Made by a program: the position numbers and the translations under genes
In this document: one piece after another, positions 26,161-51,051 of the stretch
How positions within the stretch are numbered: position 1 is the stretch's first letter
Layout: each line of letters starts with the position of its first letter
Source of the DNA: a virus
Virus record (IMG/VR): IMGVR_UViG_3300009703_000014
Coordinates: 2,236 to 66,235 of that record
Reading direction: 5' to 3' (one strand)
DNA length: 64,000 bases
Notes under the pieces: generated by a model
Database searches by the model: none
The model's input: the letters and a program-made list of their open reading frames with translations, nothing else
Told to the model about the DNA's origin: nothing

Positions 26161-26236
26161 AATAAGTTTGATTTTTAGTTTGAAAATACTTATATTTAAG
26201 TATAAAGGCTTTTAACATATAACCGATAAAATAATA

Positions 26237-31307: not shown

Positions 31308-33182
31308 ATGCCAGTAAAGCATATTACAGAAGCAGAGTCCACTAGGGCACGTAGCACAAACTACCCGAACCCTTTTTTCGATTTAGCTAATAATTACATA
31401 CCTAAAAATATAAAAACTTTATTTAAATTTTGTAGAAGTTTCTTTTACACTAACGGATTTTTACGGAATGTAATTACGAAACTTACTGAGTATCCTATTA
31501 CGGACTTACTCTATTCAACAACTATAGACGAAGCTACACGAGATTTATACGATCAGGCCTTACACCGTAAACTAAAAATCAAGAGCCTTTTAATTGAAAT
31601 CGGGCTGGACTATTATACTTACGGTAACGCTTTTGTATCTACCCATATAAAAAGTAAACGATTCATTAAGTATCCTGATGGTCAAATGATCCCTATCGAC
31701 CAGGCCACTATTAAAGTAAAAAACTTTGAATTTTATGCATCTAAACAAGGTGTAAGTGATGTAAAAGTTGAGGTTGTAGACGAGCCTATTAAGTCCATTG
31801 ATAATTTTAAATTACTGAGATGGGCTCCAGAAAATATAGATATAGACTATAGCCCCATAACAGGCGACTCAATATATTACTATACTATTCCTTCTAAGAT
31901 AAAGGCGGGGATAGCTGCCGGAAATATAGCCATTTTGCGAGATATACCTCTAGTTTTCTTAGACTCTCTACGACAAAAAAAGCGTATTATACTCGATGAA
32001 AACAACTTGTTTCATTTTAAGCGTCCTACGCTTGCTGAAGACGACATGGGATGGGGAAAACCTTTAATTCTTCCAGCTTTAAAAGATATTTATTATTTAC
32101 AAACACTAAAGCGTGGAAATGAGGCCATTTCAAATGAGCACATAATTCCTAAAAAAGCGATCTACCCTGCTAATACCACAACGCTAGACCCATATACCCA
32201 AATGAATCTCGGTAAGTGAAAAGGTCAGATGGAACAGCAAATTAAAAAATGGAGACAAGACCCTAACCACATAGGAGTTTTTCCAATCCCTATTGGATAT
32301 CAAGAGTTAGGTGGAAACGGCAGAGCTTTGCTATTAACGCCAGAAATGAAATTTATTGAGGAGTCTATTATTAACAGTATGGGTGTTCCTTTAGAATTTA
32401 TTAAGGGAGGGGCTTCTTGGACGGGTTCTAGCATTTCTTTGAGAATTGTAGAAAATCATTTTTTAACATATAGGGAGTTTTTAACAGAATTTTTAAATCA
32501 TTTTGTAGTACATAAATTAGTACATTTATTAAACTACCCTAAAGTAGACGTACGTTTTAGTAAATTTAAAATGTCGGACGATGCCCAAGCTAAACAGCTA
32601 GCTATTAATTTAAACGCATCTGGCAAGATTTCAGACTCAAAATTACTAGACGAGTTTGGGTATAATTATGAGGAGGAGGCCACTGCTATCAAGCGTACGC
32701 GTTTAGACATGATGAATGATGCTATTTTGCAGTCTGAGAAAGACGCCGAAGCGCAAGGCAAGTCTCAAATAATTTTAAGTAAATACCAAACAAGAGCTCA
32801 AAAAGCGGGAGAAGATGAAGCTTTTAGATTAAAAGCAGAGATCTTTGAAAAAGAGCTTATGCAAGAAAATCAAGGAATACCTGAAGACCCCATTAAGCTT
32901 ATAGAAAAATATGCTTATGAGATACATGGGCTGGATCCTGTTAATCAGCAGAAAAAAATGGCTCAATTAATTAAAAAAGCTCCAATTACATACGGCCTTG
33001 TTTTGGAGAGATTGCAGCTTATACAAATGGAAGCAAACCAGGTTATGGCAGCTTCAGCAAGCATGGAAGAGCCTTCTTTAGACACAGCTCCTAACGAGAA
33101 AGGAGTAGGAAATAGAGAGGGAGATAAAGTTAAGTTGCGTGAAAAAGAAAAAACAAAAGGCCAAACAAGAGGTAGTGTTTAA
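31308..33182 (+). CDS. Portal protein (624 aa, 1 TGA=Trp)
   Basis: Portal-like blocks (LIEIGLDYYTYGNAF, LFHFKRP...WGKPLILP, IINSMGVP). The two ORF pieces join as MNLGK[W]KGQMEQQ. Confidence 0.8.
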
Positions 33183-33570: not shown

Positions 33571-34875
33571 TTATGATAAGGCTTCCTTAAAAATTTTCTT
33601 TAATAGCGTTTTCTTGTCATCCCACCTAAAAAGCTTGTCTATCCGCGCAATACACTTCGTATCTATGGTTATTTTTTTGTTATTTTTTTTCCATTTTTTA
33701 TATTCAATTTCTAAGGCGTCCGTCATTGCGCCCATATCTGCTACGGGCCTTAAGTGCCCATTATCCATCGCTTGGTTAATCACTGTTGTGTTAGGAATTA
33801 AGTGTCCTGTATCACCCAGCATCTCTGGAATTGCGCTATTAAAAGGTGCAATGCTAGGGGTACCTGTGGAAGCTGCCTCTAAAAGACTTAGCCCACATCC
33901 CTCACCTAATGCACTAGATATGTTTACATTAGCTGCATTATATAGCTGGTTAATAACAGAATCAGGCACCTCTCCAGCATAAATATTTCGAGCATTTATA
34001 CCTAAAATAGTGTTTACATCAGAGTCAGCAAACCCGGCATTTAATAAGTGGTTTTGTAGTAGGTTAGCTTTAGAAGGGCCCATTGACATCTCTTTAGGCA
34101 TACAATGTAAGTAGAGAAACACGTCATCTTTAACTGTCCCTTTTGCTTTTAAATCTCTGGATCTAGTTAAATCGCACCACTCTCTATCTGCTGGCATTTT
34201 AAATCCCTGTTCATTTTCTTTATAGCCTTTAGCAAACATACTAAAAGCTCTAGCTGTGCCAGGAATAAACTTTCTAGGTTGGAATCTATTTATGTTACAA
34301 ACTACAAACTTATCTTCCCAACCAAACTGTTTACGAAGACTTTTTATTTCCTCTTTAGGTAGCGGATAAAAAGTCTTTTTGTCTACACCATGATAAAGCT
34401 TCCACAGTTTTTTATCTGGAAGTTTAAAATTCTTAATTTGTTTTGTAACTTCAATAGCCCAGTCACTGTACTCTATTATAGCATCAGAATAAGTAAAAAC
34501 GTCTCCCCAAGCAAAAGAAACAGGAGCCCCATCAATAGGAAAATACGATACAATTTTAGCGTTAGGAGCCCAGTCTGTTTTTATTTTTTTAATAACTTCT
34601 GAAACATGGAAAATGTCTTGGAAAAGAAATATAAGTTCAGGCTTTTCTTTTTTTATAATCCGCTCCATTTTTTTATATCCCAGCATATCATCCTTAGATA
34701 TGGGGTATACAAAATATTTTGAAGTATCATACCGGGTCTCCCCATGGTAGTTAATGCCTAAGACACTAACATCATAATCCTCATGCATATCCTCCAGTAA
34801 ATTTTTTGCAACATTTCCAAAGCCAGTAGGGACTAAAAAATCACACCAGCAAAACAGTTTTTTCTTATTACTCAT
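33571..34875 (-). CDS. Glycosyltransferase, GT-B/GT4 family (434 aa)
   Basis: TGFGNVA, NINRFQPRK, EGCGLSLLEAASTGTP motifs; 9 Trp, all TGG. Confidence 0.88.
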   Translation of the reverse strand: MSNKKKLFCWCDFLVPTGFGNVAKNLLEDMHEDYDVSVLGINYHGETRYDTSKYFVYPISKDDMLGYKKMERIIKKEKPELIFLFQDIFHVSEVIKKIKTDWAPNAKIVSYFPIDGAPVSFAWGDVFTYSDAIIEYSDWAIEVTKQIKNFKLPDKKLWKLYHGVDKKTFYPLPKEEIKSLRKQFGWEDKFVVCNINRFQPRKFIPGTARAFSMFAKGYKENEQGFKMPADREWCDLTRSRDLKAKGTVKDDVFLYLHCMPKEMSMGPSKANLLQNHLLNAGFADSDVNTILGINARNIYAGEVPDSVINQLYNAANVNISSALGEGCGLSLLEAASTGTPSIAPFNSAIPEMLGDTGHLIPNTTVINQAMDNGHLRPVADMGAMTDALEIEYKKWKKNNKKITIDTKCIARIDKLFRWDDKKTLLKKIFKEALS

Positions 34876-35539
34876 TTATTTTTTTTATGGTTTTTTTTAT
34901 ATGTTTTTGTAAATTAAAATTTTTAGGCACTGAGGCACTTTTAATAAGGTTAGGCGCTGCCCATAAAGGCTGTAAGTTTGTATAATGAAAAGCAACCTTT
35001 TGGTGCTCTTCTTTATCTAAGGAGAATGCACTACAAGGGATAATGTGATCTACGTGCCAATCCCCATAATTTTTCCAGGACATGCCTGCTTCAAATTGCT
35101 TTTCTAGATATTCTTTTAGATAGGAAACTGAGCAACCTAACAAATAAACAGTTTTAGCCTCCTTTGTTTTCCCGTCAGCCTTTAAAGCTGTAGTAAGGCG
35201 GGAGCGCATTGTATTTTTTAATTTAAAAATGGGGTCTGAGGCCATTCTTTTATTATACCAAGTATTTCGCTTAGCTCTATATAAATCGCCTTTAATAGGG
35301 TCTCTTCTAATATCTTTATAACGCTTTCTATCCTTAGCCCTTATAACTTCTCGGTTAACCTCTCTATACTCCGCAGCTTTTAGAAGGGCCCTAGCTTTAT
35401 TTTCTTCATAATACTTAGCTAAGTACGACTTTAGACAAGGGGCACATGCGGATTTGTGTCCATCTAATGCGTTTTTATTTTTTGAAAAGTCTGCTAAGCG
35501 AAGTATTTTATGGCACCTGGTACATTGTTTTGTGTTCAT
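34868..35539 (-). CDS. HNH endonuclease with N-terminal zinc finger (223 aa)
   Basis: CxxC...CxxC N-terminus; WHVDHIIPC...HYTNLQPLWA..N HNH core. Confidence 0.85.
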   Translation of the reverse strand: MNTKQCTRCHKILRLADFSKNKNALDGHKSACAPCLKSYLAKYYEENKARALLKAAEYREVNREVIRAKDRKRYKDIRRDPIKGDLYRAKRNTWYNKRMASDPIFKLKNTMRSRLTTALKADGKTKEAKTVYLLGCSVSYLKEYLEKQFEAGMSWKNYGDWHVDHIIPCSAFSLDKEEHQKVAFHYTNLQPLWAAPNLIKSASVPKNFNLQKHIKKTIKKINE

Positions 35540-35611
35540 ACTTTAATATAACCATAATTTGGCGGCATTTCAAGGGTCTAAAAAATTCTTAATGTAAAAA
35601 AATAAGGACTT

Positions 35612-35635
35612 TAAAGCGCCCAAATGGGCGCTTTA
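35612..35635. terminator. Hairpin terminator downstream of the large structured element
   Basis: TAAAGCGCCCAAATGGGCGCTTTA perfect inverted repeat. Confidence 0.7.
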
Positions 35636-35664
35636 TTGTTTATAAATATGTGGCTAATTCGCAC

Positions 35665-36600
35665 AATTAAGAGTATTTTGTGTTGCACTTCGAGGGAAGG
35701 GAGGGGTCTCGTCGTGGCCTGGATTCAGAACCTTCTCGTTGTCGCTGTTGCAGCGGGCGTCCTGAGGCCTAGGAGAACCGGGTGATCGCGTCATCCTTTT
35801 GGAGGGGCGTCCTGTCTGGCATGCATCCAGAGCTGAGCTGTAGCTGGGGTGTCACCTGAGTCTCATCGGTTGTTGTCCGTTGGATCTTAGGGGCGGGCCA
35901 TGCCCAGTATGTTGGCGGCGCTCTGATCATGAGCTTGTATTTCGTGACCGTTCGGGGACCCTTGGGCTCCACCTGGGGTGAATCGCGTCAACATGTTCCC
36001 GTGTGGTTCATGTGTCATGGCTGGCGTAACCTTAGGCCCTGGAACCGGAGGACGCCTCCGTTGTTGCTCGCGAGATTCCTGACGATAAAAGTGGCTCCGT
36101 TCATATCACGGTGTTTCGGCATGACGTTTTCCGAGCCCGATCCGGGCTCTTGTGCTGATAGTGATATGTGGTGACCTTTAGTCAGGAAGACTGTGAGTGA
36201 CTCTAGTGGCGTCCTTTGTGGTCAGGACCGGTTGCGGTCGTTATGACACTACTCTTTGGTATTAATTCTTTAGAAACGGTACGTCTCTGGGTTTGCAAAA
36301 TCTGCGAACCGTTTAGCCATCTACCAACGTATATTGTTATCTATACAATAAATTCCCTACTCTAGCCTATGAGGCTCTTGGGGATTTATGTCCACTTACT
36401 AGGGGAATGAATAAAAGTCCTGCAGAATCAGTAAATTTCGGCTCGGGGGGCACCTTCATTCGGAAGGTGCTCAAAATGAGAGCATAGAACTTTACTGTAG
36501 TGCGTGGAGGTTTATTCATTCTCGAAGAAGTTTGTTGTCTTGTTCTTTGGTAACACACTTACAAAGTCGTATCGACTTTGAATCCTTATTTTATAAGGAA
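35665..36600 (-). ncRNA. Large structured non-coding element (candidate RT template RNA): AT-richer 5' domain plus about 590-nt GC-rich closed domain
   Basis: About 1.07-kb gene-free gap. Nested helices TCCTGAC/GTCAGGA, CATATCAC/GTGATATG, GAGCCCG/CGGGCTC, GAATGAATAAA/TTTATTCATTC; closing stem AAGAGTA+GTGT / ACAC+TACTCTT. Confidence 0.55.
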
Positions 36601-36618
36601 AGGGTCTATAGATATTAT

Positions 36619-36858
36619 TTAGAAAGTTTTCTCTTCTTGTAGTGAAAATTTTCTAAATAACGAGATTGCTTTTTTTAATTCTCTAAGACTTCGTCTTGTA
36701 CGCTTCGCAGCCGTTTTAGTCCCAATAATCGTAAACCGTAAGTTTTGATTTTTTGCTTCTAAGAACAGCTCCTCCATGTACGTGAAAACTTCTTGCCCTG
36801 AGCTAAATTGCTTTTCTCGATTTGTTTTGGTAGTATCCTTCTTTATATTATGTTCCAT
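36619..36858 (-). CDS. Small basic protein, Hc1/histone-H1-like type (79 aa)
   Basis: F...GTKTAAKRTRRSLRELKK..RK pattern resembling Hc1-like proteins. Confidence 0.55.
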   Translation of the reverse strand: MEHNIKKDTTKTNREKQFSSGQEVFTYMEELFLEAKNQNLRFTIIGTKTAAKRTRRSLRELKKAISLFRKFSLQEEKTF

Positions 36859-37568
36859 TGTTTACCTTTAGTAACTGTACTTCTCCAACACTTGTTGCAT
36901 GTCGAGCAGGATTTTTCGTGAGGTATCAGGCCGCTATCACAGGGACAGCTTTCTTTATATACTCTCGATTTTTCCATTTCTTTGTGTTTTTTTGATATGT
37001 TGAAGAAAATTGTGAAGTCTAAGCCTTTCTTTTTCCAGGATCCAAAGCTATCTGCTGTCCCTGTGTAGGCAAGGCCTATTTTGTCTAAGCCTTTTTGATT
37101 TTTAATATTTTTATAGTTGGCCATATTTTGGTCATCAAAGCTCAGTATTATTTTTGTTAGGTTTCTTAGGTTTTTTAAACGGTTAATATAAGGGAGCATG
37201 TGGGTCTGCGTTATATTTTTTGATATAATATAAAATTTAAAGTCAAGTAATTTTAGAAACTCTAGATGATGCTCTTTAAAATCACCGCTCCCATAAATTC
37301 TTACTGGGAGTTTGTCTAAGCGATGGTATGCTTTAGCTTTACTTCTTCTATATTTGCGATACTCTTTATTCAGAGCACTAGCAAACATTTTTGGGTTGTC
37401 AGTTGCCATAGTTTCATTACGTTCTATCTTAGGCTTATATGCCTTATATAATTTTTCCAAGTTGCCTACATAACAGTAGGCGCATATTTGGTCGCAGGTT
37501 GTAAACCTGTCAAAGTCTAAGGATAAAATCGTTTTTGAATTAGTGGTAAATATAGGAGGCGCTGACAT
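36843..37568 (-). CDS. Radical-SAM-like / Gp88-like Fe-S protein (241 aa)
   Basis: CDQICAYCY (CxxxCxxC), VRIYGSGDF, C-terminal CPCD...CSTCNKCW. Confidence 0.7.
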   Translation of the reverse strand: MSAPPIFTTNSKTILSLDFDRFTTCDQICAYCYVGNLEKLYKAYKPKIERNETMATDNPKMFASALNKEYRKYRRSKAKAYHRLDKLPVRIYGSGDFKEHHLEFLKLLDFKFYIISKNITQTHMLPYINRLKNLRNLTKIILSFDDQNMANYKNIKNQKGLDKIGLAYTGTADSFGSWKKKGLDFTIFFNISKKHKEMEKSRVYKESCPCDSGLIPHEKSCSTCNKCWRSTVTKGKQWNII

Positions 37569-37577
37569 AATAACACT

Positions 37578-37787
37578 CTACGTCCTTTTAGCAGGCCTAG
37601 CATCATACTTCTTATCCACCCCTTCCATATAATGCTCAAAGGTGATAGGCGATATGCTTGCAAGGCTTGAATTGCGTATTTTCTTGCTTATTGTGAGTGC
37701 GTCCATAATGTCTTCCGCTCGTACATACATCGTACGTCCACTACTTCTTTTTTTTCCAGTTTCCAGCACTATTTTGAAATGCTGCAT
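37578..37787 (-). CDS. Hypothetical protein (69 aa)
   Basis: ORF track; co-oriented. Confidence 0.6.
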   Translation of the reverse strand: MQHFKIVLETGKKRSSGRTMYVRAEDIMDALTISKKIRNSSLASISPITFEHYMEGVDKKYDARPAKRT

Positions 37788-37799
37788 AAAAGTCTCCGG

Positions 37800-37922
37800 T
37801 TATTTAGTTTTGCTAGGTTTTGGTGTAGTCATTGATTCAAGTTCTTCAGTTGCCATGATTTGGGCTATCTGTGATATAGCTATTATGGCGATTAAGCCTA
37901 TGAGTTTTCCTAGCTGTTCCAT
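37800..37922 (-). CDS. Small hydrophobic peptide (40 aa)
   Basis: MEQLGKLIGLIAIIAISQIAQ...; fills the gap between neighbouring genes. Confidence 0.45.
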   Translation of the reverse strand: MEQLGKLIGLIAIIAISQIAQIMATEELESMTTPKPSKTK

Positions 37923-37927
37923 GAAGT

Positions 37928-38425
37928 CTATGGTTGGTTTAATTTAATTTCTGTGTTGCAGTACATAAACAAAAATCGTTTACATTCGTTTAACAGAACT
38001 TTAATTTGTTTTTTTAGTCCACCAGGCGAGGTGGTTCCTAATTTTCGTGTTATTGTAACTTCTTTTTTTGTCCATGAGTATTCAAAATTTATCTTTTTTG
38101 ATATCATTTGCTTCTCAAAAGAGGCGGGGAAAGTTTGTTTTAGTTGTAGGTTTGGCCTGCCGTTAGACATGTCAAGCAACAACTGCATAAACCCCGTTTT
38201 TAATGTATCTTTTTTATTTAGTAAGAGAGTCAGATTATTTACGTCACTAAATTCAGTGAATATAAATAGAGCTCCTTCTGTCTCAACCCAGCCGAAAGGC
38301 AGGTAGCAAGACGTTTCTTTTAGCCTATCAAACTTTTTACTTAGCAGAACTAAGTTTTTAGCGTCATTTTGCCAAGCTGTGTCAAAAACTGGTTTCCTCT
38401 TACTGGGTGTAAGCTTTTTATCCAT
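37928..38425 (-). CDS. Hypothetical protein overlapping the RT 3' end (up to 165 aa)
   Basis: ORF track; 76-nt overlap with RT, start uncertain. Confidence 0.6.
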   Translation of the reverse strand: MDKKLTPSKRKPVFDTAWQNDAKNLVLLSKKFDRLKETSCYLPFGWVETEGALFIFTEFSDVNNLTLLLNKKDTLKTGFMQLLLDMSNGRPNLQLKQTFPASFEKQMISKKINFEYSWTKKEVTITRKLGTTSPGGLKKQIKVLLNECKRFLFMYCNTEIKLNQP

Positions 38426-39252
38426 TCGCAGTATCCTCTCATTTGCTGATATTCTTCTAGAGAAATTGTTTTTTGATCTCTATTGATGTTGTGTAATTTT
38501 GCTCTGAAGTTACGCCACTTCCATTTTGGAACGCTTAACTTCTTATTTACAACCACCCCTGTAATGCTCATGCGTTGGTTGGGTTTTCGTATCCGCGTCT
38601 TCTTAGGATTTACTTTCAGGTCTGCCATTTCTATAAATTCTGTGATAGGTTTTATATGTGTCCCCATTTTTTCACTTTTATCCGAGTGGCTAAAGGTGAG
38701 GTCATCAGCATATCTCGTGTAGAGAAGCCCATGGATTTCGCTGTATGTGCTTAAATTGTGATCTAGAGCTATACAGTATAAGTTTGCCAATGCCGGTGAT
38801 GTGGGGGATCCTTGTGGAAGCTGTCCCTTATAAGTAACCAATTTTACAAAAACTTTCAAATCCTCTCTTGTAAAAGTAAAAGAGGGCTCTATTTTCTTAT
38901 ACCTATTAAATAGGGAAAACCCCAATTTATAAACGTTTGCCGTTTTAATAGAATTGAAGAAGTTCGATAGGTCCATGCAGAGTAAAGCGTCTCGCCCTAA
39001 GTGCCTTAATGCTCCGTCTGCAACGCCAATGCCCGACACAAAACCTACAGCTGCGTCATGAGCACTGAAGTTATATAAAAAGGAATATAAAATTCTACTT
39101 TGTATCTCCTTTAATTCGTCTAGGGGGGCGTCTAGCCAACGCTTCTTTCCACTTTTTTTGCTGATGGGGTACGATAAGTAGTTTTTCCCTTGGTCGGAAA
39201 TTATGCCCATAGCCTCTTGTTTGCTTGTCTGTATGCATTCATAAAAATCCAT
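38350..39252 (-). CDS. Retron-type reverse transcriptase (300 aa)
   Basis: ISKKSGKKR..AP...LK.IQ, HDAAVGF, GALRH (NAxxH-like region X), DLSNFF, LPQGSPTSP, YTRYADDLTFS, ITGVVVN (VTG-like region Y); AGGAG RBS. Confidence 0.92.
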   Translation of the reverse strand: MDFYECIQTSKQEAMGIISDQGKNYLSYPISKKSGKKRWLDAPLDELKEIQSRILYSFLYNFSAHDAAVGFVSGIGVADGALRHLGRDALLCMDLSNFFNSIKTANVYKLGFSLFNRYKKIEPSFTFTREDLKVFVKLVTYKGQLPQGSPTSPALANLYCIALDHNLSTYSEIHGLLYTRYADDLTFSHSDKSEKMGTHIKPITEFIEMADLKVNPKKTRIRKPNQRMSITGVVVNKKLSVPKWKWRNFRAKLHNINRDQKTISLEEYQQMRGYCEWIKSLHPVRGNQFLTQLGKMTLKT

Positions 39253-39269
39253 AAAAACTCCTTTTTTTT

Positions 39270-39550
39270 AATTACAATCATACTACTAGGCCAGCTTCTC
39301 GGAAGGCGTCCGCTTCCGAGAGTTGCCGTGTTGTTGTTTCGTGTTGTCCCACACGAAGTATTTAGTATTATCTTAAGAAAAGCGAAGCGCCTTTCGTAGA
39401 CTTTGTTTTTATAACGTAGTCGTATTAGTCTATAACTGTACTAAACAGTAATCTTTTAATATGATTGATTACGGTTATTTTAGGTACTATGCCAGACGAA
39501 TCGTTCTGGGTACCGTATTATATAATACAGTGCGTACTACAGTTAGTTTT
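39270..39550 (-). ncRNA. Structured ncRNA upstream of RT (msr-msd-like)
   Basis: Hairpins TCTCGGAAG/CTTCCGAGA, TTCGTGT/ACACGAA, GAAAGGCG/CGCTTTTC, GGTAC-CCAGA/TCTGG-GTACC; inverted repeat CAATCATA (39275-39282) / TATGATTG (39460-39467). Confidence 0.65.
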
Positions 39551-39554
39551 TTTG

Positions 39555-41090
39555 TTACACTACTGAAAAAATAATTTCAGCTACTTTGTCAGCGGAAGAC
39601 TGTCTTATATCGTCTAACTTGCTAATCTTGTCCGAAAACTCGTTAATGGCGCAATCAGTATTATAATCCACATCAACCAGAACAGAGTGTACTATTACAT
39701 TTTTTTGCTTCTTCCAGGAAATGAAATCATATAACCAACTTTTCCTGACTGCGGAGTTTCCATCCGTAATAAACACAATGTCCGCTTTTTTAAATTCTTT
39801 GTGGTCGTTTATTGTGTCTTTGGCGAGATCTAGCGGTGGCTCGAATTGGGTACCGCCGCTTGCGAAAAACTCCGCCATGTCTAAAACCTCTGATACATTA
39901 TAGGCATCAGATTTTAGAAAGTTGTTGGTGTGAAGCATGTGCTTGGGTGAGGCATCGAAGTGAATAACGTGCAAGCTTCTGTTTTCAGCTCTAGCTATTT
40001 CTAGCAAACCCATGGCTACTCCTTTAGCCCATATTTCAGGCTCTCCGTGCATACTTCCACTACTATCAATACACACTACAATGGGACCTTTTGCCTTTTT
40101 TTCCTTACCAGCATACTTATATTGTAATAAGTTACTTTCCACATAATTCTTTTTGAACGATGTTTTTAGCAGAGGGTGCGACAGCTTTGACATCTCAGTC
40201 GGAATCAGCTTTCCTATGTCCTTCCCAAGTTCTATATCATAAATGCTATTTACACCTTTTGATATTTTGTTCTTGAAAGTACTAAGGGCTAAAGACTTAT
40301 AGCGGCCCATTAAAGCAGCTATTTCCTTTAACTTTTTGGAAGTATTCAGGGTTTCCAATAATTTTAGTTTTTCTTGATACCCGCTTTTTTGATAGTTAGG
40401 GTCCTGCTCTAGCCCCCAGTTAGCTATCATCTCTGAAGTTTCCTGGGTTTTGGAAATTGCCTTATCTAGCATCCTGTTTATCTGTCGTTTTTCTTTCTTC
40501 TCTACGACATTTAAAGTGTTTAGAGTATCCTCGAGGTGTTTTTGAGCGTCCTCTAAACTTATCTGTTCTTGGGATTTTCCTTCCCCAGTCCCGTTGTTCT
40601 CCTTTTCTGCATCACCTCCTGCAGCTTGTTCCTTGTCGGCAGCATTCTCTGCGGCACTCTCTAGGTTTTTAAGCGCTTCATCGAACTTGTCCTTAAGGTC
40701 TTTAACCAAATCCTTAACCTGTTCCCCAACTACTTCGGTACCCACGGCAGCATTTAGCTTGTCAAGCCTAGTCATTCCTCTTAGTTCCTTATATTGAGGG
40801 CTGTCCATAACGGCATCCATCACCTGGCTATTTAAACTATATTCGTAAGCTATATCTTTGTCGTCGAATTTTTCGGGACTATACTTATATAAGCTATCGA
40901 AAACGTCTTGGTGGAGATGCTCGAACTGTGGGTACATATCTGTGCCGGACATGTAAGTGGCGGCTATTTTTGGATTTTTTAGTAGAAGCTCTTTGAAAGC
41001 GTGTATGTCGAAATTGTCATACTTCACGCTATACTTCTCGGATTTTATTCGTTTTAGAATACTTTTTGCTTTTTCTGACAATGTTTTCAT
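39555..41090 (-). CDS. vWA-domain protein, ViaA/CoxE-like (511 aa)
   Basis: MIDAS IDSSGSM, GGTQFEPPL, IVFITDG. Confidence 0.88.
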   Translation of the reverse strand: MKTLSEKAKSILKRIKSEKYSVKYDNFDIHAFKELLLKNPKIAATYMSGTDMYPQFEHLHQDVFDSLYKYSPEKFDDKDIAYEYSLNSQVMDAVMDSPQYKELRGMTRLDKLNAAVGTEVVGEQVKDLVKDLKDKFDEALKNLESAAENAADKEQAAGGDAEKENNGTGEGKSQEQISLEDAQKHLEDTLNTLNVVEKKEKRQINRMLDKAISKTQETSEMIANWGLEQDPNYQKSGYQEKLKLLETLNTSKKLKEIAALMGRYKSLALSTFKNKISKGVNSIYDIELGKDIGKLIPTEMSKLSHPLLKTSFKKNYVESNLLQYKYAGKEKKAKGPIVVCIDSSGSMHGEPEIWAKGVAMGLLEIARAENRSLHVIHFDASPKHMLHTNNFLKSDAYNVSEVLDMAEFFASGGTQFEPPLDLAKDTINDHKEFKKADIVFITDGNSAVRKSWLYDFISWKKQKNVIVHSVLVDVDYNTDCAINEFSDKISKLDDIRQSSADKVAEIIFSVV

Positions 41091-41099
41091 ATTACTCCT

Positions 41100-42233
41100 T
41101 TAAGTAAAGCTCACGCCGCAAGCTTCGTTATATACTTCTGTAAGATACTGGTCTATTTTTGATTCTAAAGCTCTTACTTCTTTAGTATCTCGACCCTTTT
41201 CTTTTATGCTCAAATAATAAGAATTCATCTTTTTCTTCGCATCTTTTAATTTTACAGCTACCTCTACACCTTTTTTAAGGCGGTTAGCATCGTTATTTTC
41301 TATACTCATTACAGAGTCATATAAATCTTGAGCGTCGTCGAATAATTCCATAATTTTATTCTTTTCAGGATTTATCAGATCTAGTATAGCTGAGTAAACA
41401 TACTTAGCTTCGTCAGGATCTGACCACATTACGTGCTGTAAAATGTCTAAGTCACCTTCTAAGACGGTATCTCTTTTTTGGTAGTAAGCTTCTGCTTTCA
41501 ATAAGTTGATACAGCCCTTATAAGATCTATCTGAAACTTTGATACCTTTGTCATTTAGACTAGTCTTTAGGTTAGCAATTATTTCTATTATGTCTTTAGA
41601 AACTGTCACTTTTTTCACAGCTTTTCTTATAGAGAGGATGTCCTCTAAGCTGATCAATGGAGCATTTTTTATGGGCTCACTTTGCATCATTTTAACGAAG
41701 TTAGAAGACTCTTTGATTGGTTTAACCATGTACTTTAAGGTAAATCTGTCTAACATCGCTTCCAAGCCATCCCCTTCTTCGGGTAACTCATTAGAAGCCC
41801 CCACGAGGGTTAATAAGGGTATATTCACTGGTTTGCCGTCGTTAAAGAAAATCCGTTCATTCAGAATGGTTAGCAGGAAGTTTAAGACCCCTGAATTGCC
41901 TTTCCAAGTTTCGTCAATAAAGGCTATATCGGCCTCCGGTAACTTACCTGTGGTATTTCTTAAAAACTTGTCTGACTCTAAACCCTTTAGAGAGTATGGG
42001 CCTGCCAATTCCTCTGGCGTTGAGTATGCCGTTAAAAGCCAGCTGAAGTAGTTGCTTTTATCTATCAATTTTGCCCAGCTATTCACTAAGAGGGACTTTC
42101 CTACCCCTGGAGGGCCTAAGTATAATATATTGTTACCTGAAATAACTCCGAGAGTTAATCCATGTATCTCATCTGCCCTCTCTACGAAGTAGCTATTGAG
42201 TGTTTTTTCTATTTTTTGAAGTTTATCATGCAT
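41100..42233 (-). CDS. MoxR/RavA-type AAA+ ATPase (377 aa)
   Basis: GPPGVGKS Walker A, FIDETWK Walker B, GASNELP, LDRF; adjacent to vWA partner. Confidence 0.88.
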   Translation of the reverse strand: MHDKLQKIEKTLNSYFVERADEIHGLTLGVISGNNILYLGPPGVGKSLLVNSWAKLIDKSNYFSWLLTAYSTPEELAGPYSLKGLESDKFLRNTTGKLPEADIAFIDETWKGNSGVLNFLLTILNERIFFNDGKPVNIPLLTLVGASNELPEEGDGLEAMLDRFTLKYMVKPIKESSNFVKMMQSEPIKNAPLISLEDILSIRKAVKKVTVSKDIIEIIANLKTSLNDKGIKVSDRSYKGCINLLKAEAYYQKRDTVLEGDLDILQHVMWSDPDEAKYVYSAILDLINPEKNKIMELFDDAQDLYDSVMSIENNDANRLKKGVEVAVKLKDAKKKMNSYYLSIKEKGRDTKEVRALESKIDQYLTEVYNEACGVSFT

Positions 42234-42595
42234 TATGCTGTTTCCTGTTTAAATAAATTTAGTTGTCGTTTTTTTTGTTCAATCTCTTCTCGCTCTACAA
42301 TAAAGGCTTTTGCCCCTTCTCGCTCCGTCACATTTAAAAGTTTTTGGATATCTTTTATGCTGTCGAAACTTCTTGGTTTTATGATAGCTTCATAAGAAGA
42401 GAGCTCAAGATCCGCTGGTATTACTTCGCAGTGTATATGAATGAGCAAACCTAGCCCATTTAAGCAAAGGCTTAACTTAACTGCTTCTAACGCAGATGAG
42501 TTTATAAAACAGTAAAAGTTAGTCTTTTGTGTCTTCAGTAGAGCTTTGTACCTTCTCTGTAGTAGGCTTTGCATCTGTTGTGCGAACGTCTCCAT
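42233..42595 (-). CDS. Hypothetical protein (up to 120 aa)
   Basis: ORF track; TAATG coupling to the AAA gene; start uncertain. Confidence 0.55.
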   Translation of the reverse strand: METFAQQMQSLLQRRYKALLKTQKTNFYCFINSSALEAVKLSLCLNGLGLLIHIHCEVIPADLELSSYEAIIKPRSFDSIKDIQKLLNVTEREGAKAFIVEREEIEQKKRQLNLFKQETA

Positions 42596-42710: not shown

Positions 42711-42947
42711 TATTTTAAGTTAAGAAAAAGAGACTAAGCCCTTTTTCTATAGTATACTAACTATGATTTAGGTAAATCATATATTTCCGTATTTGATATC
42801 TCTACATCTTCTGTAGAGGTTATGTCTTCCATATTCATAATTGTTTTGACTTCCCTTATATTTAGGGTTATATTTAAATATTCTAAAATATTTTAATTTG
42901 AGGTAAATTATAAGCCTCATTGTTCTTATACCAAAAAAACACCAATT

Positions 42948-45900
42948 ATGGAAAATCTATTAAACCACGAATTACAAAATAAGCGTATTCAAAAATCTAT
43001 TATAAAGTCTATAAACAGTTATTTTCCTGTAGAGGCCGGCAACAAGCGCTTAGACATCAGTGACTTATCAATAAAAGATTCTTTAGACAGTAATGACTTT
43101 CCAGCACAAAAAGAAAGTAAATTAAGCAGACAAAGCTGGCAAGTTCCGATTTACGCTTCCCTTACTTTAACAGATCTTTTAACACAAAAAGTTATTAGTA
43201 AAAAAACGAATATAAAGATAGGGGACGTCCCTAAGCTAACAAACAGATTTACTACCATTGTTGATGGAAATGAATATCAAACAGTAAATCAGCTTAGACG
43301 TAAACCTGGGGTTTATTCAAGAATTAAAAAGAATGGGGAACTTGAAAGCGAGTTTAATCTCGCTAAGGGTGTGAACTTTAAAATGCAGCTTGATCCAGTT
43401 AAAGAAGTTTTTTATATTGTGCTGGCCAACAGACGTTATAGACTGTGAACTTTATTACAAACACTAGGAATGTCTGATGCGGATATGGAGCGTTTTTGGG
43501 GAAGCGAACTTTTGCTTAAAAATAAAAAAGGCGCCCTAAACACAGAAGAATCAGAGATGACTGCTATTTATAGTAAGCTTTATAGAAAGCCTGCTAAAGA
43601 TTATGATTCTGTGGTGAAGGGGCTACGTAATTACTTTACAGAAGAAGGTACTAAATTAGATGAAGGCACCACTAAACTTACCCTGGGAAAGTCCTTTAAA
43701 GCTGTTACAGGGGAAACCTTAATTGCAGCCTCAAATAAGTTACTAAATATTCATAAAGGCAAGGAGGCTGCAGACGATCGGGATAGTTTAGTATATAAGA
43801 ATATGCATACGGTGGATGATCTTGTGATTGACCATTTTCATAGAAATGCCGAAGTCATAGTAGAAAAAATTAAAAGATCTATGGGGCTTAGAGACACAGT
43901 TCGCGCTGTAATTCCTGCAAGCACCTTTACTAAGCCTGTAAAAGATTTCTTTACTTCAGGTGACCTGTCAGCAACACCTGCCCAAACGAATCCAGCAGTT
44001 ATTGTGTCTGACTGGAGAAAAACGTCTCCTATGGGAACAGGGGGAATACAAAGCAGGCACGCCATTACTATGGAAACTCGAGACGTGCAGCCTACGCATC
44101 TAAGCTTTTTAGACCCACTAGCTACTCCTGAATCAGGCAGAGTAGGCGTAACGGTAGGGTTATCTTCTGAGGTACAAAAACAAAATGGGGAAATGAAAAC
44201 TCCTGTTGTTAATCCAAAAACTAACAAGATGGTATTTGTTACTCCTTTAGAGTTTTTTGAAGCAAGGGTAGGATTCCCTGACCAGTATTCTTATAAAAAT
44301 TCTAAGGTGGTACCTAGATATAAAATAGTGAATGCCCAATATAAAGGGAAGCTGGTTAGGATAAAAGCCTCCCAAGTCGATTACTATATAAGATCACCCA
44401 AGTCTATGTTTTCTTTTGCATCAAATATGGTGCCTTTTATGCAGACAGTTCAGGGAAACAGGGCATCTACGGCCGGTCGAATGATAGGACAAGCCTTGGG
44501 CTTGGATAATAAGGAAGCCCCCCTCGTGCAAACTTTAAGAGACTCCGGCGCCGGTACAGGAAAAGAAACTTATGAAAAACTAATAGGTAATTTTTTAAAC
44601 CCAATACTCGGGAAAGATTCTAAGGGAAAGACGCAAAAAGGGATAGTTGAAAAGATTACAAAAGACTATATTTATATTAAAACGTCTGACGGGCGGCAAG
44701 TAAAGCGGGGCCTATATAACAATTTTCCCCTAAATCAGGATGGCTTTTTACACTCCAACCCTTTAGTTAAAGTAGGTGACTCTATAAAGTCAGACACAAT
44801 ATTAGCAGACAATAATTATGCAGACAAGGACACCTTAGCTCTGGGTAAAAACCTTTCAGTGGCCTACATGGCTTACAAAGGTTTTAATTTTGAGGACGGT
44901 GCCGTTATAACAGAAAGTGCTGCTAAAAAGCTATCGCATACAATGTTACACAGACTGAATGTTTTTTATAGCCCAAAAACATCTTTATTTGACGTAAGTA
45001 AATTTCAAGCATGGTTTCCGGATGACATAACAAATAGTAGTATTTTGGATGCCACCGGCGTTGTTAAAAAAGGGGCCACCGTCAATCCGGGCGACACTGT
45101 CGTTGCTTTTTTAATAGAAAAAGAAATGGATGACCGAGAAAAAGCTTTAAAAAAATTAGATAAGTTTACATTTACCCCTTACACAAAAAAAACGTTGGTA
45201 TGGGAAGAAGACGAGCCAGGAATTGTTAGCGAGGTTAGGAGGGTTGGCAGAAATATTGACGTATACATCAAAAGTACCCATCCTTTTACAGAAGGTGATA
45301 AGCTATCAGGGCGGTATGGCAATAAATACATCGTAACTAAAATTATTGACGATGCGGATTCGCCTCATAGAGAAAACGGGGAGCCTGTTGAAATACTATT
45401 AAATCCTCATGGTGTTCCCGCACGAATGAATGTGGGACAAATTTTAGAAACAGCTGCGGCTAAAATAGCTAAAAAAACAGGGAAACCTTACATTGTTAAT
45501 AACTTTGAAAACCCTGACGCAGACATGGTCACTAATATGAGCAAGGAGTTAAAGAAGCATGGGTTAAAAACTACTGAGATACTGACCGACGGAAAAACGG
45601 GTCAATCTTTTGAAACCCCTATATATACAGGTGGGCAGTACTTTATGAAACTGCGCCATATTGTTAAGAAAAAGGAAGGAAAACACGCGTTCGGTACTTA
45701 TGATATTGATGAGCAGCCTACAGGAAAGGGGTCCCAAAGAATTGGAGTATTAGACACATACTCTTACCTAGCACACGGTGCAAAAGCAAACTTAAGAGAA
45801 ATGACTTCTATAAAAAGTAGGCAGAATGAGGAGTATTGACGTAATTTACAGTTAGGGTTACCTCCTGTAAAACCTCAACGAAACTTTATATTTAATAAAA

Positions 45901-48900
45901 TTACTTCTTATCTTAATGCTGCGGGGATTAATACTGTAAAGAAGGGAAATGAGTTAAGAGTGATGCCTCTAACAGATAAGGACGTAAGGAATATGTCTAA
46001 TGGGGACTTAAAAGATCCGGGAGCCATGCTTATTGGAAAAAACCTAGGTTCTAGAAAAGGCGGTCTTTTTGATCCAGAAATTACTGGAGGCATTAAAGGG
46101 ACCCAATGATCGCATATCAAGCTCACTGCACGTATACCTAATCCTATGTATGAAGACGCAATTATGAAAGCTTTAGAGCTTACACAAAATAAGTTTGAAG
46201 CTATTATGAAAGGTAAAGAAACTCTTGGTAATAAAACAGGCCCAGCCGCAATTGTAAACGCTTTAAGCAATTTAAATGTTAAGGAAGAAATTAAAAAGGC
46301 TAAAAAAGCATTAAAGAGTGCTCCAGAAACAACCGTTAATAAGTTAAATAAGCGATTACGTAATTTGGTGGCATTAAAAGATTTAAAAATAGGTGCTAAG
46401 GAGGCATACACAATGCAGAATGTTCCTGTACTCCCTCCTTCTTTTAGACCTGTGTACCCCCTTCCTAGCGGAGATCTCATGGTCAGTGATCTAAACAAAC
46501 ATTATAGGGATATTGGGTTAATTAATTCCTCTTTAAAAAAGGTGTGGTCTTCATTAGAGGATGAAGACAGGCTATCCTCTACGAACGACTTATACACTTC
46601 CGTTAAAGCAATGCAAGGCTTTATAGATCCAGTAACCTATGGTAAGGAAAAATATCAGGGGATATTAAAAGAGCTGGGCAAAACTAAAACTGGCCTACTT
46701 TTTGAAAAGGGGTGGTCTAAACGACAAGACTTAAGCGCCAGAAGCACTATTACGGTTGCACCTAGTTTAGGGCTGGATGAGGTAGGACTCCCTAAAAAAA
46801 TGGCTTTCACAGTTTATAAGCCTTTTATTGTCAGGAGTTTAAAGGAAAGCGGCTTTAAAGCTAGAGAGGCTTTAAAACATGTAGAGGACCAAACAGACAT
46901 TGCTTTGAATGCTCTACAAGGTGTATTGAAAAAAAGACCTTTGCTATTAAATAGAGCTCCGTCTTTGCATAAGCACTCTGTGCAAGCTTTTGACCCTACT
47001 CTTAGTTCTGGAAAATCAATACAGCTTAATCCCCTAATTGTGGGTGGATTTAATGCAGACTTTGATGGTGATACAATGTCAATTAATGTGCCAGTAGGTA
47101 AAGAGGCTGTAGAAGAGGCGAAAGGAATGCTGCCTAGTAAAATACTTTTTAAAGCTGGCGATAGCTCTCTAATACCACAGATAGCTCATGAATATTTATT
47201 TGGTCTTTTTATGCTATCTGAAATTAATGGAAAGAGTGACTTGAGTTTTAACTCAATAAGCTCTGCTAAGAAAGCAGGCATTCCATGGACTACAGAATTT
47301 AAATTAAAAGGAGATACAGTAACTTTAGGGCAATATTATATTAACGCTGAACTACCTGCGGCTTTAAAAGACTATACCCGAAAATTAGATAAGAAGGCTG
47401 TAAAGAAGCTTTTAACAGTTTTAGCTAAAGACCACCCTTCTTATTTTACAGAGGTTATTAATAGCTGAAAAACTTTAGGAGCACACTATGCCTATTTAAG
47501 AGGCAACACTATCTCATTAGATGACTTTGCTATAGATAGGTCTTATAAAAATAGAATTTTAAATAAAGTGATGCCTATTATTGATAAGATGAAGGGAAGG
47601 TCAAAAATCGAAGCTTTAAATAAAATGACAGTCTCTGTACAAAAAGCACAGGATAAAGCCATGAAGGGTAGAAATAATAATATATATGATATGCTTAGAT
47701 CGGGGTCTTTTACAAAACCTGATTCTGTGAGGCAAATTTTGTCCTTTCCAGGCGTAGTCTCGGACGTAAAAGGGCAGCCTATTGAGCACCCCATACTTAA
47801 ATCATATGGGGAAGGACTAGACACTGCTTCATACTTTAATTCAATGTACGGTGTGCGTAAAGGCCAGGTAGATAGGTCTGTTAATACTCAAGAGTCTGGT
47901 GCCTTAAATAAAGCCCTTCTAAATGTTACACGACGTTTGTTGGTTACAGAGGAAGACTGTGGTACTTTAAAAGGCTTAATATTCGGGGTTACTAATAAGA
48001 ATATATATGACCGTTTTTTATTAAAAACGGTGGCTGGTGTAGGGAGACGAAATGAAATTGTTGGGGGAGAGCTTATTATAAGGGCTAAAAAGAAGAAAAT
48101 CAAAGAATTGGAAGTAAGAAGCCCTTTGACCTGTGAAGCAGATCAAGGTGTATGTCAAAGCTGTTATGGGCTGCTGCCTAACGGAAGTCCAGCACCAGTC
48201 GGAACAAATGTAGGGGTTTTAGAATCCCAAGCCATTACTGAAAGAGCTACGCAACTTACAATGCAAACTTTCCACTCAGGCGGAACTGCCTTAGGAGGTG
48301 GTGGTATTGTTGCAGGGTTTCCTCGGTTAGAGCAGATTTTAAAAGTGCCTGAAAAGCTCGGAGGAAAAGCTACTTTATCGGATGTAAAGGGTAAAGTTAA
48401 GAAAATCAAGAAGAATTTGACAGGAGGATATGAGGTATTTATAGAGGGGTATGGTGCTAAGAATGATAAGAGTTTTGTAGTTCCCGCTGGACGCCAAATT
48501 ATACTTAAAGTAGGTGATTCGGTAGATAGGGGAGATCCTATATCAAGCGGCGTTATTAAACCGCAAGAGCTCGGAGCACTAAAAACACATTTAGATGCTC
48601 AAAAGTATATGGTGCGTGAAGCTTCCTCTGTATACTCCGGAGACTTTTATGATAAAACGTTTGAAACTGTTATAAGAGGCATTAGTGATAATGCCGAGGT
48701 TACAGACGCTCCCGAGGGCTCAAATGTACTACGGGGAGATAAAATGCCTGCTAGCTCTTTGAGAAAATTAAATAAAGAAAGGCGAAAGCTAAAATTACCT
48801 AAAATTAAATTTAAAGAGTATTTTAAATCTATAGATACTTTAAATACAGATGCTAGAGATTGGCTGACTAGAATTACAAGTAACAGGGTGAAGGCCGGGC

Positions 48901-49022
48901 TCATTACAGCAGCCTCTCAAGGACAATACTCTAACTTTAAGGGAAAAGACCCTATTCCCGCATACTTATATGGGGACGACTTTGGTAAAAAATCCGACCC
49001 GTCTAAGGGACACTTTTATTAA
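42948..49022 (+). CDS. Multisubunit-type RNA polymerase, fused beta-beta' polypeptide (2024 aa, 4 TGA=Trp)
   Basis: beta motifs (TPESGRVG, GNRASTAGRM, GYNFED-like GFNFEDG, GDKLSGRYGNK, NPHGVPARMNVGQ) and beta' motifs (GGLFDPEITGG, NRAPSLH, catalytic NADFDGD, TQLTMQTFH) in one frame; TGA at 43446, 45837, 46107, 47466. Confidence 0.9.
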
Positions 49023-49034
49023 CCACCTCTTAAT

Positions 49035-49712
49035 ATGTTTAATGACATAGATGTTGATGCTTATAGCGAGCAATTTAGCAAAGAAGGTTTTGTTTCAATA
49101 CCAGACATTTTAAATAAAGATACTAGTATTAGGCTTTTAAGAAGTTTTTCAGAGATACCGTGAAATAGTAAATTTATTAGTTTGTTTGGCGAAGACCATG
49201 TGCCCTCTACCATGGTAGAACGCATACCTGAAGGGTGTATTATAGAAAAAGCTGAAAAAGATTTTTCTTTCTACTTTGATTTTTTTGAGCCTGAAAAAGG
49301 ATTAGGGCTATACGAGGTTACGGATATTTTAAATAACTTTAAACAGAGCGATTTTATGTTAAAAACTGTACAGCAAATTACAGGAGATACCCACCTTAAA
49401 AACTGCTATGCTGCTTTAACACGCTACACACCCAACAGCTTCTTAAAAATACACGACGATAACTTTAGTGGGGATTATGGAGAACGTAAACTGGCCTTCG
49501 TTTTACACCTTACACCAGAATGACGGGCCGACTGGGGCGGATTTACTTTATTTGTAGATAAAGACGATTACTGTAAAATTAATAGGACCGTGGTACCTTC
49601 TTTTAATACTTTGCACTTATTCAAAGTGGATCAAAATAGCACTCACTGTGTTACTCCCGTAGCCCCCTTTGCTAAAAATAGATATAGCCTATCAGGCTTT
49701 TTACATGTTTAA
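49035..49712 (+). CDS. 2OG-Fe(II) oxygenase, prolyl-hydroxylase type (225 aa, 2 TGA=Trp)
   Basis: HDD...RKLAFVLHLTPE[W]RADWGG...HCVTPV...RYSLSGF; the TGA falls on the conserved WxxxWGG motif. Confidence 0.85.
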
Positions 49713-49715
49713 CAT

Positions 49716-50249
49716 ATGCCTTACTTTGTAAGAACAGAACAACTAGCCATTTGCTGGCGTCAACACGAGTTTAATGTTGAAGCCTTAGATGGACGCATAG
49801 AGAAAGTGGGAGATGACTTGCCTTGTTATGTAGTCGCCCACCATCCTAACAAAAACTGATCTTATAATGTAGGCATAATAAAAAGAACCACCCCTATATT
49901 AGGATATAATGAAGTAGAGAAGCTAGGCAGAAAAAAAGAAGGACATCCTTCTTTATATTATGAACTAGTTCCTGCTGAGCATTATGAAGCTTATATAGAG
50001 AAGGGTGGTTTTTCTAATGAGCTTAACGTAGAGCAGGCGACTGTTCCTAAAGCGACAGTCATTAAAAGCAGCCCAAAACCTGTTAAAATGGAATTACCTA
50101 AGCTCCCGGAGCCGGCATCACCAACAGAGGGTGCTGAGCTTCCTACTAAAACAACCCCCTTACTTCCTGAAGAGTGGACTGACTCTCCTAAGCTCGTAGA
50201 CGGGTCACAAAAACCTATATATACGTACAGAGCCCCTTCCAGAAAGTAA
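49716..50249 (+). CDS. Hypothetical protein with Pro-rich C-terminus (177 aa, 1 TGA=Trp)
   Basis: Fills the gap exactly between oxygenase and PhoH when TGA 49857 is read. Confidence 0.65.
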
Positions 50250-50268
50250 GAAGTACCGGAGGAATATA

Positions 50269-51012
50269 ATGCCCAAAAGCGTGGAATATCTAAATGATTG
50301 CTCACAGCCCTGTAATAATGTAAGACAAGTGATATCACAGATGCGTCGTTGTAAGTGAGACATTACCTTTAAAACTCCTAACCAAGAAAAGTTTTACGAT
50401 GCTATGCAAGATCACGATGTATCTTTTTGTGTAGGACCAGCAGGTACAGGAAAATCCTATATATCAGTACATTTCGCATTAAAACAGCTTGTTAATAAAA
50501 AAAATGGTATAGACGGCATAATACTGTGTAGGCCTATGACTTATCTGGATAATGAATCTATAGGGTTTTTACCTGGAAATGTTGAAGAAAAAATAGATCC
50601 TTTTATGTGGTCCTACTGAGGGATTATTGAAAAAATCCTAGGAAAAGCTAGAATGGAGGCTTTAGTCAATACTGACTTAATTAAAGTAGTCCCTGTAGCT
50701 TTTTTAAGGGGTCTAACTTTAGACAACAAAATTATTTTATATGATGAGGCCCAAAACTCAACCGCTACTGCTATGAAGTCTTTGCTTACTAGACTAGGAG
50801 AAAGTTCCAAGATGGTCATCATGGGGGACTTGGATCAAACAGACAGAAAAAGTGCCAATGGTCTAGAAGATGCCATTAAAAGGCTATGGGATTTAAAAGA
50901 GGTAGGATATGCAGGATTCACTAAACAGGATATTGTACGAAATGGCCTTATTAAAAAGATCTTGAAAGAATATGAAAGGGAGCCCTGCTTACAGGGTATT
51001 CCTAAATTTTAA
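50269..51012 (+). CDS. phoH: PhoH-family ATPase (247 aa, 2 TGA=Trp)
   Basis: GPAGTGKS, GFLPGNVEEK, LRGLTLDN, DEAQN, TRLGESSK, GDLDQTD; alternative start at 50341. Confidence 0.9.
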
Positions 51013-51015
51013 CGT

Positions 51016-51051
51016 AAAAAAAGGGAGGGGGTATAGCCCCCTCCTAATTTA
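51016..51051. terminator. Terminator between convergent phoH and minus-strand block
   Basis: A7-GGGAGGGGG-TATA-GCCCCCTCC hairpin. Confidence 0.7.

Follow-up and report, generated by a model that had tools for sequence, protein, structure and literature searches.

A single-chain beta-beta-prime RNA polymerase from a large phage family, encoded by a TGA-recoded gene

Results

Both large subunits of RNA polymerase in a single frame

The 64,000-nucleotide stretch analysed here (the window; positions 2,236 to 66,235 of IMG/VR virus record IMGVR_UViG_3300009703_000014) carries a gene for a single-chain beta-beta-prime RNA polymerase at positions 42948..49022 of its plus strand. The gene consists of 2024 codons followed by TAA, and its product has a mass of 224.7 kDa and an isoelectric point of 9.6. 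When translated with table 4, it is one open reading frame (ORF) of 2024 amino acids (aa) with exactly four in-frame TGA codons; with table 11, four same-frame ORFs of 166, 789, 440 and 484 aa are listed. A first-pass annotation of the window, made from the letters alone, had described the gene as hidden in four fragments under the standard bacterial code. That count is correct for the listed ORFs, and the frame actually falls into five stop-delimited pieces, because the 89 codons 965-1053 form a further piece without a start codon.

The first-pass annotation had also placed both catalytic halves of the enzyme in this frame, together with an intact NADFDGD motif, and the domain content bears this out. 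The Pfam beta domains Rpb2_3 and Rpb2_6 were found at residues 346-926, and the beta-prime domains Rpb1_1, Rpb1_2, Rpb1_3 and Rpb1_5 at residues 1105-1804. The region of the beta double-psi barrel was matched by PF00562 (Rpb2_6) with 203 bits at residues 564-926, while the beta-prime profiles PF00623 and PF04998 gave 91.7 and 77.8 bits respectively (the Rpb1_5 region is present). A sequence search of PDB matched bacterial beta chains over residues 14-959 and beta-prime chains over residues ~1080-1992, with E values down to 1e-98; residues 14-959 are collinear with residues 43-1045 of the beta chain 8h3v_A, and the beta-prime chain matches reached 9e-98. The catalytic Mg-binding motif NADFDGD (residues 1369-1375, 47052..47072, plus strand) is intact, and its D1371, D1373 and D1375 are invariant among the 42 homologs aligned.

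The whole protein contains only four cysteines, C1671, C1729, C1736 and C1739 (47958..48164, plus strand). Because all four lie at 1671-1739, the N-terminal four-cysteine zinc ribbon of beta-prime is missing, and no cysteine occurs in residues 1001-1100. Judged by their position, the four cysteines look like the second zinc site of beta-prime. In the segment of the rifampicin pocket, the alignment to bacterial beta shows differing residues at five pocket positions, which we take to be Q513, D516, H526, R529 and L533 in E. coli numbering, and the polymerase is predicted to be insensitive to rifampicin.

Beta and beta-prime are joined without a linker

A phmmer search of residues 930-1120 against PDB returned chance-level matches only, so the position of the junction was taken from structural alignment. 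The model that AlphaFold2 gave for residues 560-1460 had a mean predicted local distance difference test score (pLDDT) of 84.9 and a predicted template modelling score of 0.65, and at the junction it forms two adjacent strands with a pLDDT of ~80. The match to beta chains covers model residues 3 to 441-445 and extends to the C-terminus of beta (E. coli beta 719-1342, Z 23.9); for the beta-chain matches, Z ranged from 24 to 28 and the root-mean-square deviation (rmsd) from 2.6 to 3.0 Å over 355-418 residues. Beta-prime chains align from model residue 439-443 onwards, beginning at beta-prime residues 3-17, with Z of ~23 and rmsd of 2.2-2.5 Å over ~405 residues, and Foldseek was concordant. Since the C-terminus of beta meets the N-terminus of beta-prime in the alignment, the two parts join at residue ~1000-1001 with no linker. 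By alignment to the end of E. coli beta (residue 1342), residues 1 to ~1000 (42948..45947, plus strand) are the beta-equivalent part, and residues ~1001-2024 (45948..49019, plus strand) are, again by structural alignment, the beta-prime-equivalent part.

The single chain is the rule in the phage family

More than 100 full-length homologs of ~1990-2120 aa came up in a protein search, and IMG/VR holds 522 stretches with a gene for a relative of the polymerase. Among the 84 loci with DNA, 76 carry a single uninterrupted table-11 frame across beta and beta-prime, and TGAs within the polymerase gene are found in few relatives only, at 55-62% identity. Because these 76 relatives encode the single chain without a stop, the fusion is independent of the code switch. 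The closest relative (P0002), which is 76% identical, likewise has 2024 aa and the same neighbouring genes, and contains no TGA in its polymerase gene. Each of four relatives that are 97-100% complete (205-210 kb) has exactly one polymerase gene. The databases already contain this large phage family, in which the single chain is the usual form of the enzyme, and the window polymerase is almost certainly a genuine single chain of beta and beta-prime.

The cultured cousins of this polymerase are Salmonella phage Arash and Vibrio phages D69, D148 and D181. Arash (OQ632216) gp206, with 1525 aa, shows 32% identity over window residues 11-1425 (blastp, 745 bits), and gp216, with 606 aa, shows 25-27% identity over window residues 1458-2013 (blastp, 172 bits). 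In gp206, beta is fused to beta-prime at the same junction as in the window protein. However, Arash and D69 cut beta-prime at residue ~1455, whereas the window beta-prime is unsplit. The Arash-type split lies near the end of cyanobacterial gamma, as the Syn7942 chain 9dvs_D (617 aa) aligns to model residues 440-896; residue ~1455 may be a recurrent permissive split site.

Insertions are also common in the family. Many homologs are 300-1500 residues longer and contain intein or LAGLIDADG homing-endonuclease domains (PF14528, PF14890, PF05204), including the proteins P0005, P0011, P0012, P0025, P0030 and P0033 and the loci L016 (in genome G002), L069 and L012. In the Vibrio phages D181 and D148, the polymerase gene is interrupted by free-standing homing-endonuclease genes.

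The four TGA codons are read as tryptophan

The in-frame TGAs stand at codons 167 (43446..43448), 964 (45837..45839), 1054 (46107..46109) and 1507 (47466..47468), all on the plus strand. In the full-length alignment of 42 homologs, the five nearest sequences have Trp at all four positions; codon 964 falls on Trp in 40 of the 42 homologs, codon 1054 in 37, and codon 1507 on a Trp column as well. Comparison at the DNA level with seven relatives gave TGG at each of the four sites, one relative (L010) having TGA at two of them; at codon 167, six relatives have TGG and L010 has TGA. The in-frame TGAs of the relatives themselves are mostly on other columns that are TGG elsewhere. Because all four TGAs occupy TGG positions of relatives, TGA stands for Trp here, and on these alignments the coincidence would be far beyond chance.

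The rest of the window follows the same pattern. Its plus-strand genes contain 66 TGA and 99 TGG codons and its minus-strand genes 0 TGA and 78 TGG, and TGA serves as a stop in none of the window genes on either strand. With 4 TGA among its 13 Trp codons, the polymerase gene is typical of the recoded plus-strand class. A tRNA with anticodon UCA, required for reading the four TGAs, is encoded at 27142..27237 (plus strand), and it is highly probable that TGA is decoded as Trp through this phage tRNA(UCA). The marks of a recoded gene class are all found: TGAs on conserved Trp columns, a phage tRNA(UCA), no TGA stops, and recoding in a subset of the genes only.

A host that itself reads TGA as Trp (table 4) would make the polymerase gene translatable at any time, with no code switch at all. 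Such a host would explain that TGA is never a stop on either strand. It would not explain why TGA makes up 40% of the Trp codons on the plus strand but none of the 78 on the minus strand, the chance of which is ~0.6^78 = 5e-18, nor why the phage has its own tRNA(UCA), nor why close relatives range from 0 to 5 TGAs in the polymerase gene, at other Trp columns. The strand partition of TGA rules out a native table-4 host as far as we can judge, and we consider it very improbable.

Still less credence, next to none, is given to the reading that some or all of the TGAs are real stops, which would yield separate beta-like and beta-prime-like chains or mark a decayed gene. The table-11 pieces do resemble subunits, and the cultured cousins do split beta-prime at residue ~1455. 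However, every TGA sits on a Trp column that is TGG in relatives, and the junction and the Arash split point are both free of TGA; the frame is unbroken over 6 kb, the 965-1053 piece would be startless, and the plus-strand TGAs elsewhere (66) behave alike. The closest relative, moreover, has the identical 2024-aa length with no TGA. The TGAs nearest the junction are 37 codons before it (codon 964) and 53 codons after it (codon 1054). The first-pass remark that a TGA near the junction would mimic separate subunits is therefore right about proximity, although neither TGA is at residue ~1000-1001. TGA1507 was likewise considered as an Arash-type split and rejected: close relatives have TGG at 1507, and it does not mimic that split because the split maps ~50 codons upstream.

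As the closest relative has no TGA and encodes the same length under table 11, the four TGAs are recent TGG-to-TGA changes. TGA in the polymerase gene marks tolerance, not a conserved gate. In the closest relative (L007:16822-18168, plus strand), the polymerase and oxygenase genes have no TGA and the next two genes have two each, so recoding is patchy within one operon. The idea that the polymerase can only be translated after the code switch thus survives in a narrower form: the full-length product of the window gene does need TGA as Trp, but the fusion itself does not hinge on the code, as 76 of 84 relatives show, and the dependence on TGA is recent.

Promoter-like elements face each other ahead of the polymerase gene

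A sigma-70-like promoter, TTGACT-N17-TATATT, lies 74 nucleotides (nt) before the polymerase ATG (42846..42874, plus strand); with 10 of 12 matches it is the best site of the region. An element of this type is found 78-141 nt upstream of the polymerase gene at nine of nine loci (the window and eight relatives of at least 55% identity). The only other intergenic sigma-70-like promoter in the window, TTGATT-N17-TATATT (26168..26196, plus strand), stands ahead of the cassette of tRNA(UCA) and lysis genes. In the complete relative G001, 11 of 12 sigma-70-like sites are on the plus strand.

A second element was found on the opposite strand. The exact 10-mer GGTATAAGAA (42923..42932, minus strand) is the promoter-like head of a divergent TGA-free unit and lies 16 nt before the polymerase ATG. 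The window contains eight copies, all on the minus strand, often just past a terminator-like hairpin and ahead of minus-strand genes. In the complete relatives G001-G003, the minus/plus counts of GGTATAAGAA are 17/0, 18/0 and 20/0. Six copies, enriched on one strand, are present in Arash (OQ632216.1; 11588, 20667, 32935, 87293, 123571 and 137620), where a control pattern gave 0, and the two Arash copies that were checked lie 31-45 nt before gene starts. Its retention in phages of Salmonella and of another host suggests recognition by the phage's own machinery.

An opposite-facing GGTATAAGAA is located 25-57 nt upstream of the polymerase gene in eight of nine loci. The face-to-face pair is seen at 42846-42932 of the window and likewise in L007, L010, L079, L016, L006, L011 and L012. 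As the predicted starts face each other and the transcripts would overlap, interference is possible, and the pair may act as an interference switch.

Neighbouring genes

Directly after the polymerase gene comes a 2OG-Fe(II) (2-oxoglutarate/iron) oxygenase gene with two TGAs (49035..49712, plus strand). This gene, which the closest relative has too, probably shares a transcript with the polymerase. It is followed by a 177-aa ORF with one TGA (49716..50249, plus strand) and a PhoH-like gene with two TGAs (50269..51012, plus strand). The polymerase unit thus continues through three more recoded genes (49035..51012) to a GC-rich hairpin with T-runs on both sides (51023..51045). Lying where the plus and minus units converge, this hairpin is probably a strong terminator in both directions that ends the polymerase unit.

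On the other side, the portal gene (31308..33182, plus strand) encodes a protein with 31% identity to Arash gp204 (E 2e-84). Between portal and polymerase lies a TGA-free minus-strand cassette of 9.4 kb (33571..42595), which encodes a glycosyltransferase, a reverse transcriptase, a VWA protein and a MoxR ATPase. The portal-then-polymerase order of Arash and D69 is retained, with the cassette interrupting it.

Sigma-like factors are present and alpha is absent

The first-pass annotation had noted that neither an alpha nor a sigma gene is present. This is true inside the 64-kb window, but a sigma-like gene was found ~300 nt before the window start, and the complete relatives have a canonical sigma. 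Profiles of alpha (PF01193, PF01000) had no match in the four 97-100% complete relatives and Arash; the control search was positive in 14 of 14 known genomes. The Sigma70_r2 and Sigma70_r4 profiles had no match on the 73-kb contig of the window, which says little, as the contig is 35% complete and the sigma-like protein is too divergent for these two profiles.

The upstream gene (L109, contig C1:1215-1937, plus strand) is an ortholog of Arash gp10 (E 1e-23). Its 240-aa product has no Trp, matches phrog_351 (sigma factor) at 2.6e-9 and reaches 24.8 bits with Sigma70_r3, just under the cut-off of 25.3. This gp10-like family has more than 160 members, several of them on polymerase-bearing contigs of ~200 kb. 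In G001, a recoded relative, the gp10 ortholog contains one TGA and sits in a heavily recoded structural block; the table-4 ORF calls of G001 include spurious opposite-strand ORFs and were used for strand-level trends only.

The four complete relatives have one canonical sigma each, on the opposite strand, with region 2 recognized by Pfam (60-72 bits) and a region-4-like helix-turn-helix on our own reading. The G001 gene for it has 3 TGG and 0 TGA, and its Arash ortholog is gp196.

When the gp10-like protein was modelled in complex with polymerase residues 1055-1506, the prediction scored 0.48, and the best of three controls scored 0.00. The contact agreement of the runs was at least 31% and the partner pLDDT at least 68. 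The mark for this score was passed by 58 of 80 solved complexes and by 2 of 110 mismatched pairs, and passing scores of 0.60 or under were seen in only 7 of those 80 as well as in both passing mismatches. As sigma with core is a textbook pair, the score may show likeness only; the prediction lends weak support to binding of the polymerase by the gp10-like sigma. That the polymerase works with phage sigma-like factors would be the best explanation of these sequences.

Discussion

We propose that the window gene encodes the sole RNA polymerase core of a ~200-kb phage, a compact beta joined seamlessly to beta-prime, with no alpha. Until the phage tRNA(UCA) is active, no full-length enzyme would be made; it would appear alongside the virion and lysis proteins, and it is likely that polymerase synthesis is confined to this suppressor phase. 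The new polymerase would then be packed into the particle with the gp10-like sigma of the same recoded module. In the following infection, the packed enzyme would transcribe the TGA-free genes from the family-wide promoter GGTATAAGAA; an early canonical sigma, as seen in the complete relatives, would redirect the core to TTGAyT-N17-TATATT promoters and so to the tRNA, lysis and polymerase units. As a whole, we regard this as the best explanation with moderate assurance, while its separate step of delivery in the virion is favoured only slightly.

The first-pass annotation had taken the dependence on TGA as Trp to imply late synthesis and a probable place in the virion, and this reading is plausible. 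Delivery in the virion is supported by the published particle proteomes of two phages (Arash and YerA41), by synteny with the portal gene and by the promoter and regulatory logic. In Arash particle preparations, gp206 (beta plus the N-terminal part of beta-prime) was the most-detected protein, and gp216 and the sigma gp10 were also found, whereas gp196, the canonical sigma, is missing from the list (PMC10585845). This crossed pattern, in which the sigma of the recoded module is particle-associated and the TGA-free sigma is not, supports delivery. In YerA41, too, polymerase subunits and sigma are particle-associated (PMC7354516). Meanwhile, TGA-free genes with a phage-specific promoter would need a polymerase that is not yet translatable, which argues for delivery.

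A crossed circuit of two sigmas can be tentatively drawn from these elements, though we hold it with less than even confidence. The packaged core and the gp10-like sigma would read GGTATAAGAA, the early canonical sigma would switch the core to the recoded genes, and the polymerase would be inherited as protein. Early transcription from GGTATAAGAA would run through the polymerase promoter and silence it until the switch. In the recoded members of the family, the code change would make delivery of the ready-made enzyme obligatory.

Several observations weigh against packaging and against the late synthesis that goes with it. The particle proteomes come from Arash and YerA41 and not from the window phage. 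The Arash particle list holds 116 of ~270 proteins, among them ribonucleotide reductase, primase and ligase, and its authors allow for carry-over of abundant proteins (PMC10585845); the YerA41 list likewise includes likely carry-over proteins (replication enzymes), and the YerA41 polymerase genes are transcribed early (PMC7354516). The promoters of polymerase and tRNA(UCA) are of the same sigma-70-like type, so host polymerase could make both early. The polymerase aligns to beta from residue 14 and to beta-prime up to residue ~1992, with no N- or C-terminal extension resembling a capsid-targeting signal. The closest relative has no TGA in its polymerase gene, and the code gate is therefore not conserved in the enzyme. 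Lastly, as the contig is 35% complete, a canonical sigma is presumed for the window phage from its relatives.

In a rival reading, the same enzyme is not carried in the virion: host polymerase with its primary sigma would read TTGAyT-N17-TATATT early and make tRNA(UCA) and the polymerase mRNA, after which the phage enzyme, with phage sigma factors, would read the GGTATAAGAA units. We consider this rather unlikely. It can call on the 10/12 site 74 nt before the ATG and its counterparts at all nine loci, on the same type of site ahead of the tRNA cassette, on early transcription in YerA41, on the contaminated look of both particle lists, and on the fact that most family members, the closest relative included, have no TGA in the gene and could translate it immediately. 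However, it leaves unexplained why GGTATAAGAA-driven genes fully avoid TGA (0 of 78 Trp codons) if the suppressor is already present, and why the recoded structural module holds a second sigma-like gene whose product, in Arash, is associated with the particle. Nor does it account for the polymerase gene keeping its place beside the portal gene, and the phage canonical sigma would be an equally good reader of the -35/-10 promoters.

The only likely reader of GGTATAAGAA could not be made before the suppressor tRNA acts; if this holds, the enzyme must arrive ready-made. In hundreds of phages, the core of a cell-type RNA polymerase works as a single polypeptide and without alpha, and the family is a natural minimal system for studying the assembly of the enzyme. 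Its TGA-free genes share a promoter, GGTATAAGAA, which a marine phage and a Salmonella phage have in common. Cultures exist for Arash and the Vibrio D phages, so that bench experiments could address this promoter, both sigma-like factors and delivery in the virion. For surveys of phage polymerases, it should be pointed out that table-11 gene callers cut the recoded polymerase into subunit-like pieces, which can mislead. A literature search of partial coverage found no described single-chain cell-type phage polymerase from the Arash-type family; new here are the recoded polymerase member and its surrounding regulatory context.

Comparison with known systems

In the rpoB-rpoC fusions of Helicobacter and Wolbachia, the C-terminus of beta is also joined to the N-terminus of beta-prime. 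These fusions are cellular, with alpha and omega present and full-size subunits, and are of independent origin. The crAss-like phages reportedly have a late module recoded at TAG or TGA, suppressor tRNAs, and early genes compatible with the standard code. Their polymerases, however, are highly divergent two-barrel proteins unrelated in sequence to the window family, and the lineage differs too.

The PhiKZ/AR9-type RNA polymerases of jumbo phages come in virion and non-virion sets, and the packaged set reads early genes from a phage-specific promoter (PMC7598289, PMC7824862). Like the window polymerase, they are phage relatives of cellular beta and beta-prime without an alpha subunit. They differ in consisting of four or five polypeptides in two paralogous sets with no sigma, whereas the window gene is uninterrupted and its relatives have one copy per genome plus sigma-like factors. 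The marks of the PhiKZ type (split subunits, two sets, no sigma) are thus absent from the window polymerase and the complete relatives.

The multimeric-RNAP-encoding Caudovirales (mReC) were published in 2020 by Weinheimer and Aylward as a clade with cell-like beta and beta-prime (PMC7481178). Their traits are COG0085- and COG0086-type profiles, the NADxDGD motif, contigs of up to more than 200 kb and occurrence in many environments, and that paper refers to subunits beta and beta-prime, with a fusion noted for crAssphage only (PMC7481178). The window protein fits this description of the clade, which comprises 97 contigs in that paper.

The nearest comparison is with Arash and D69. The Arash paper annotates gp206 simply as beta (PMC10585845). 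The polymerase of Arash and D69 uses the standard code, whereas the window gene has four TGA codons for Trp. In Arash and D69, the portal gene is followed directly by a small ORF and then by the polymerase gene, whereas in the window a minus-strand cassette stands between portal and polymerase.

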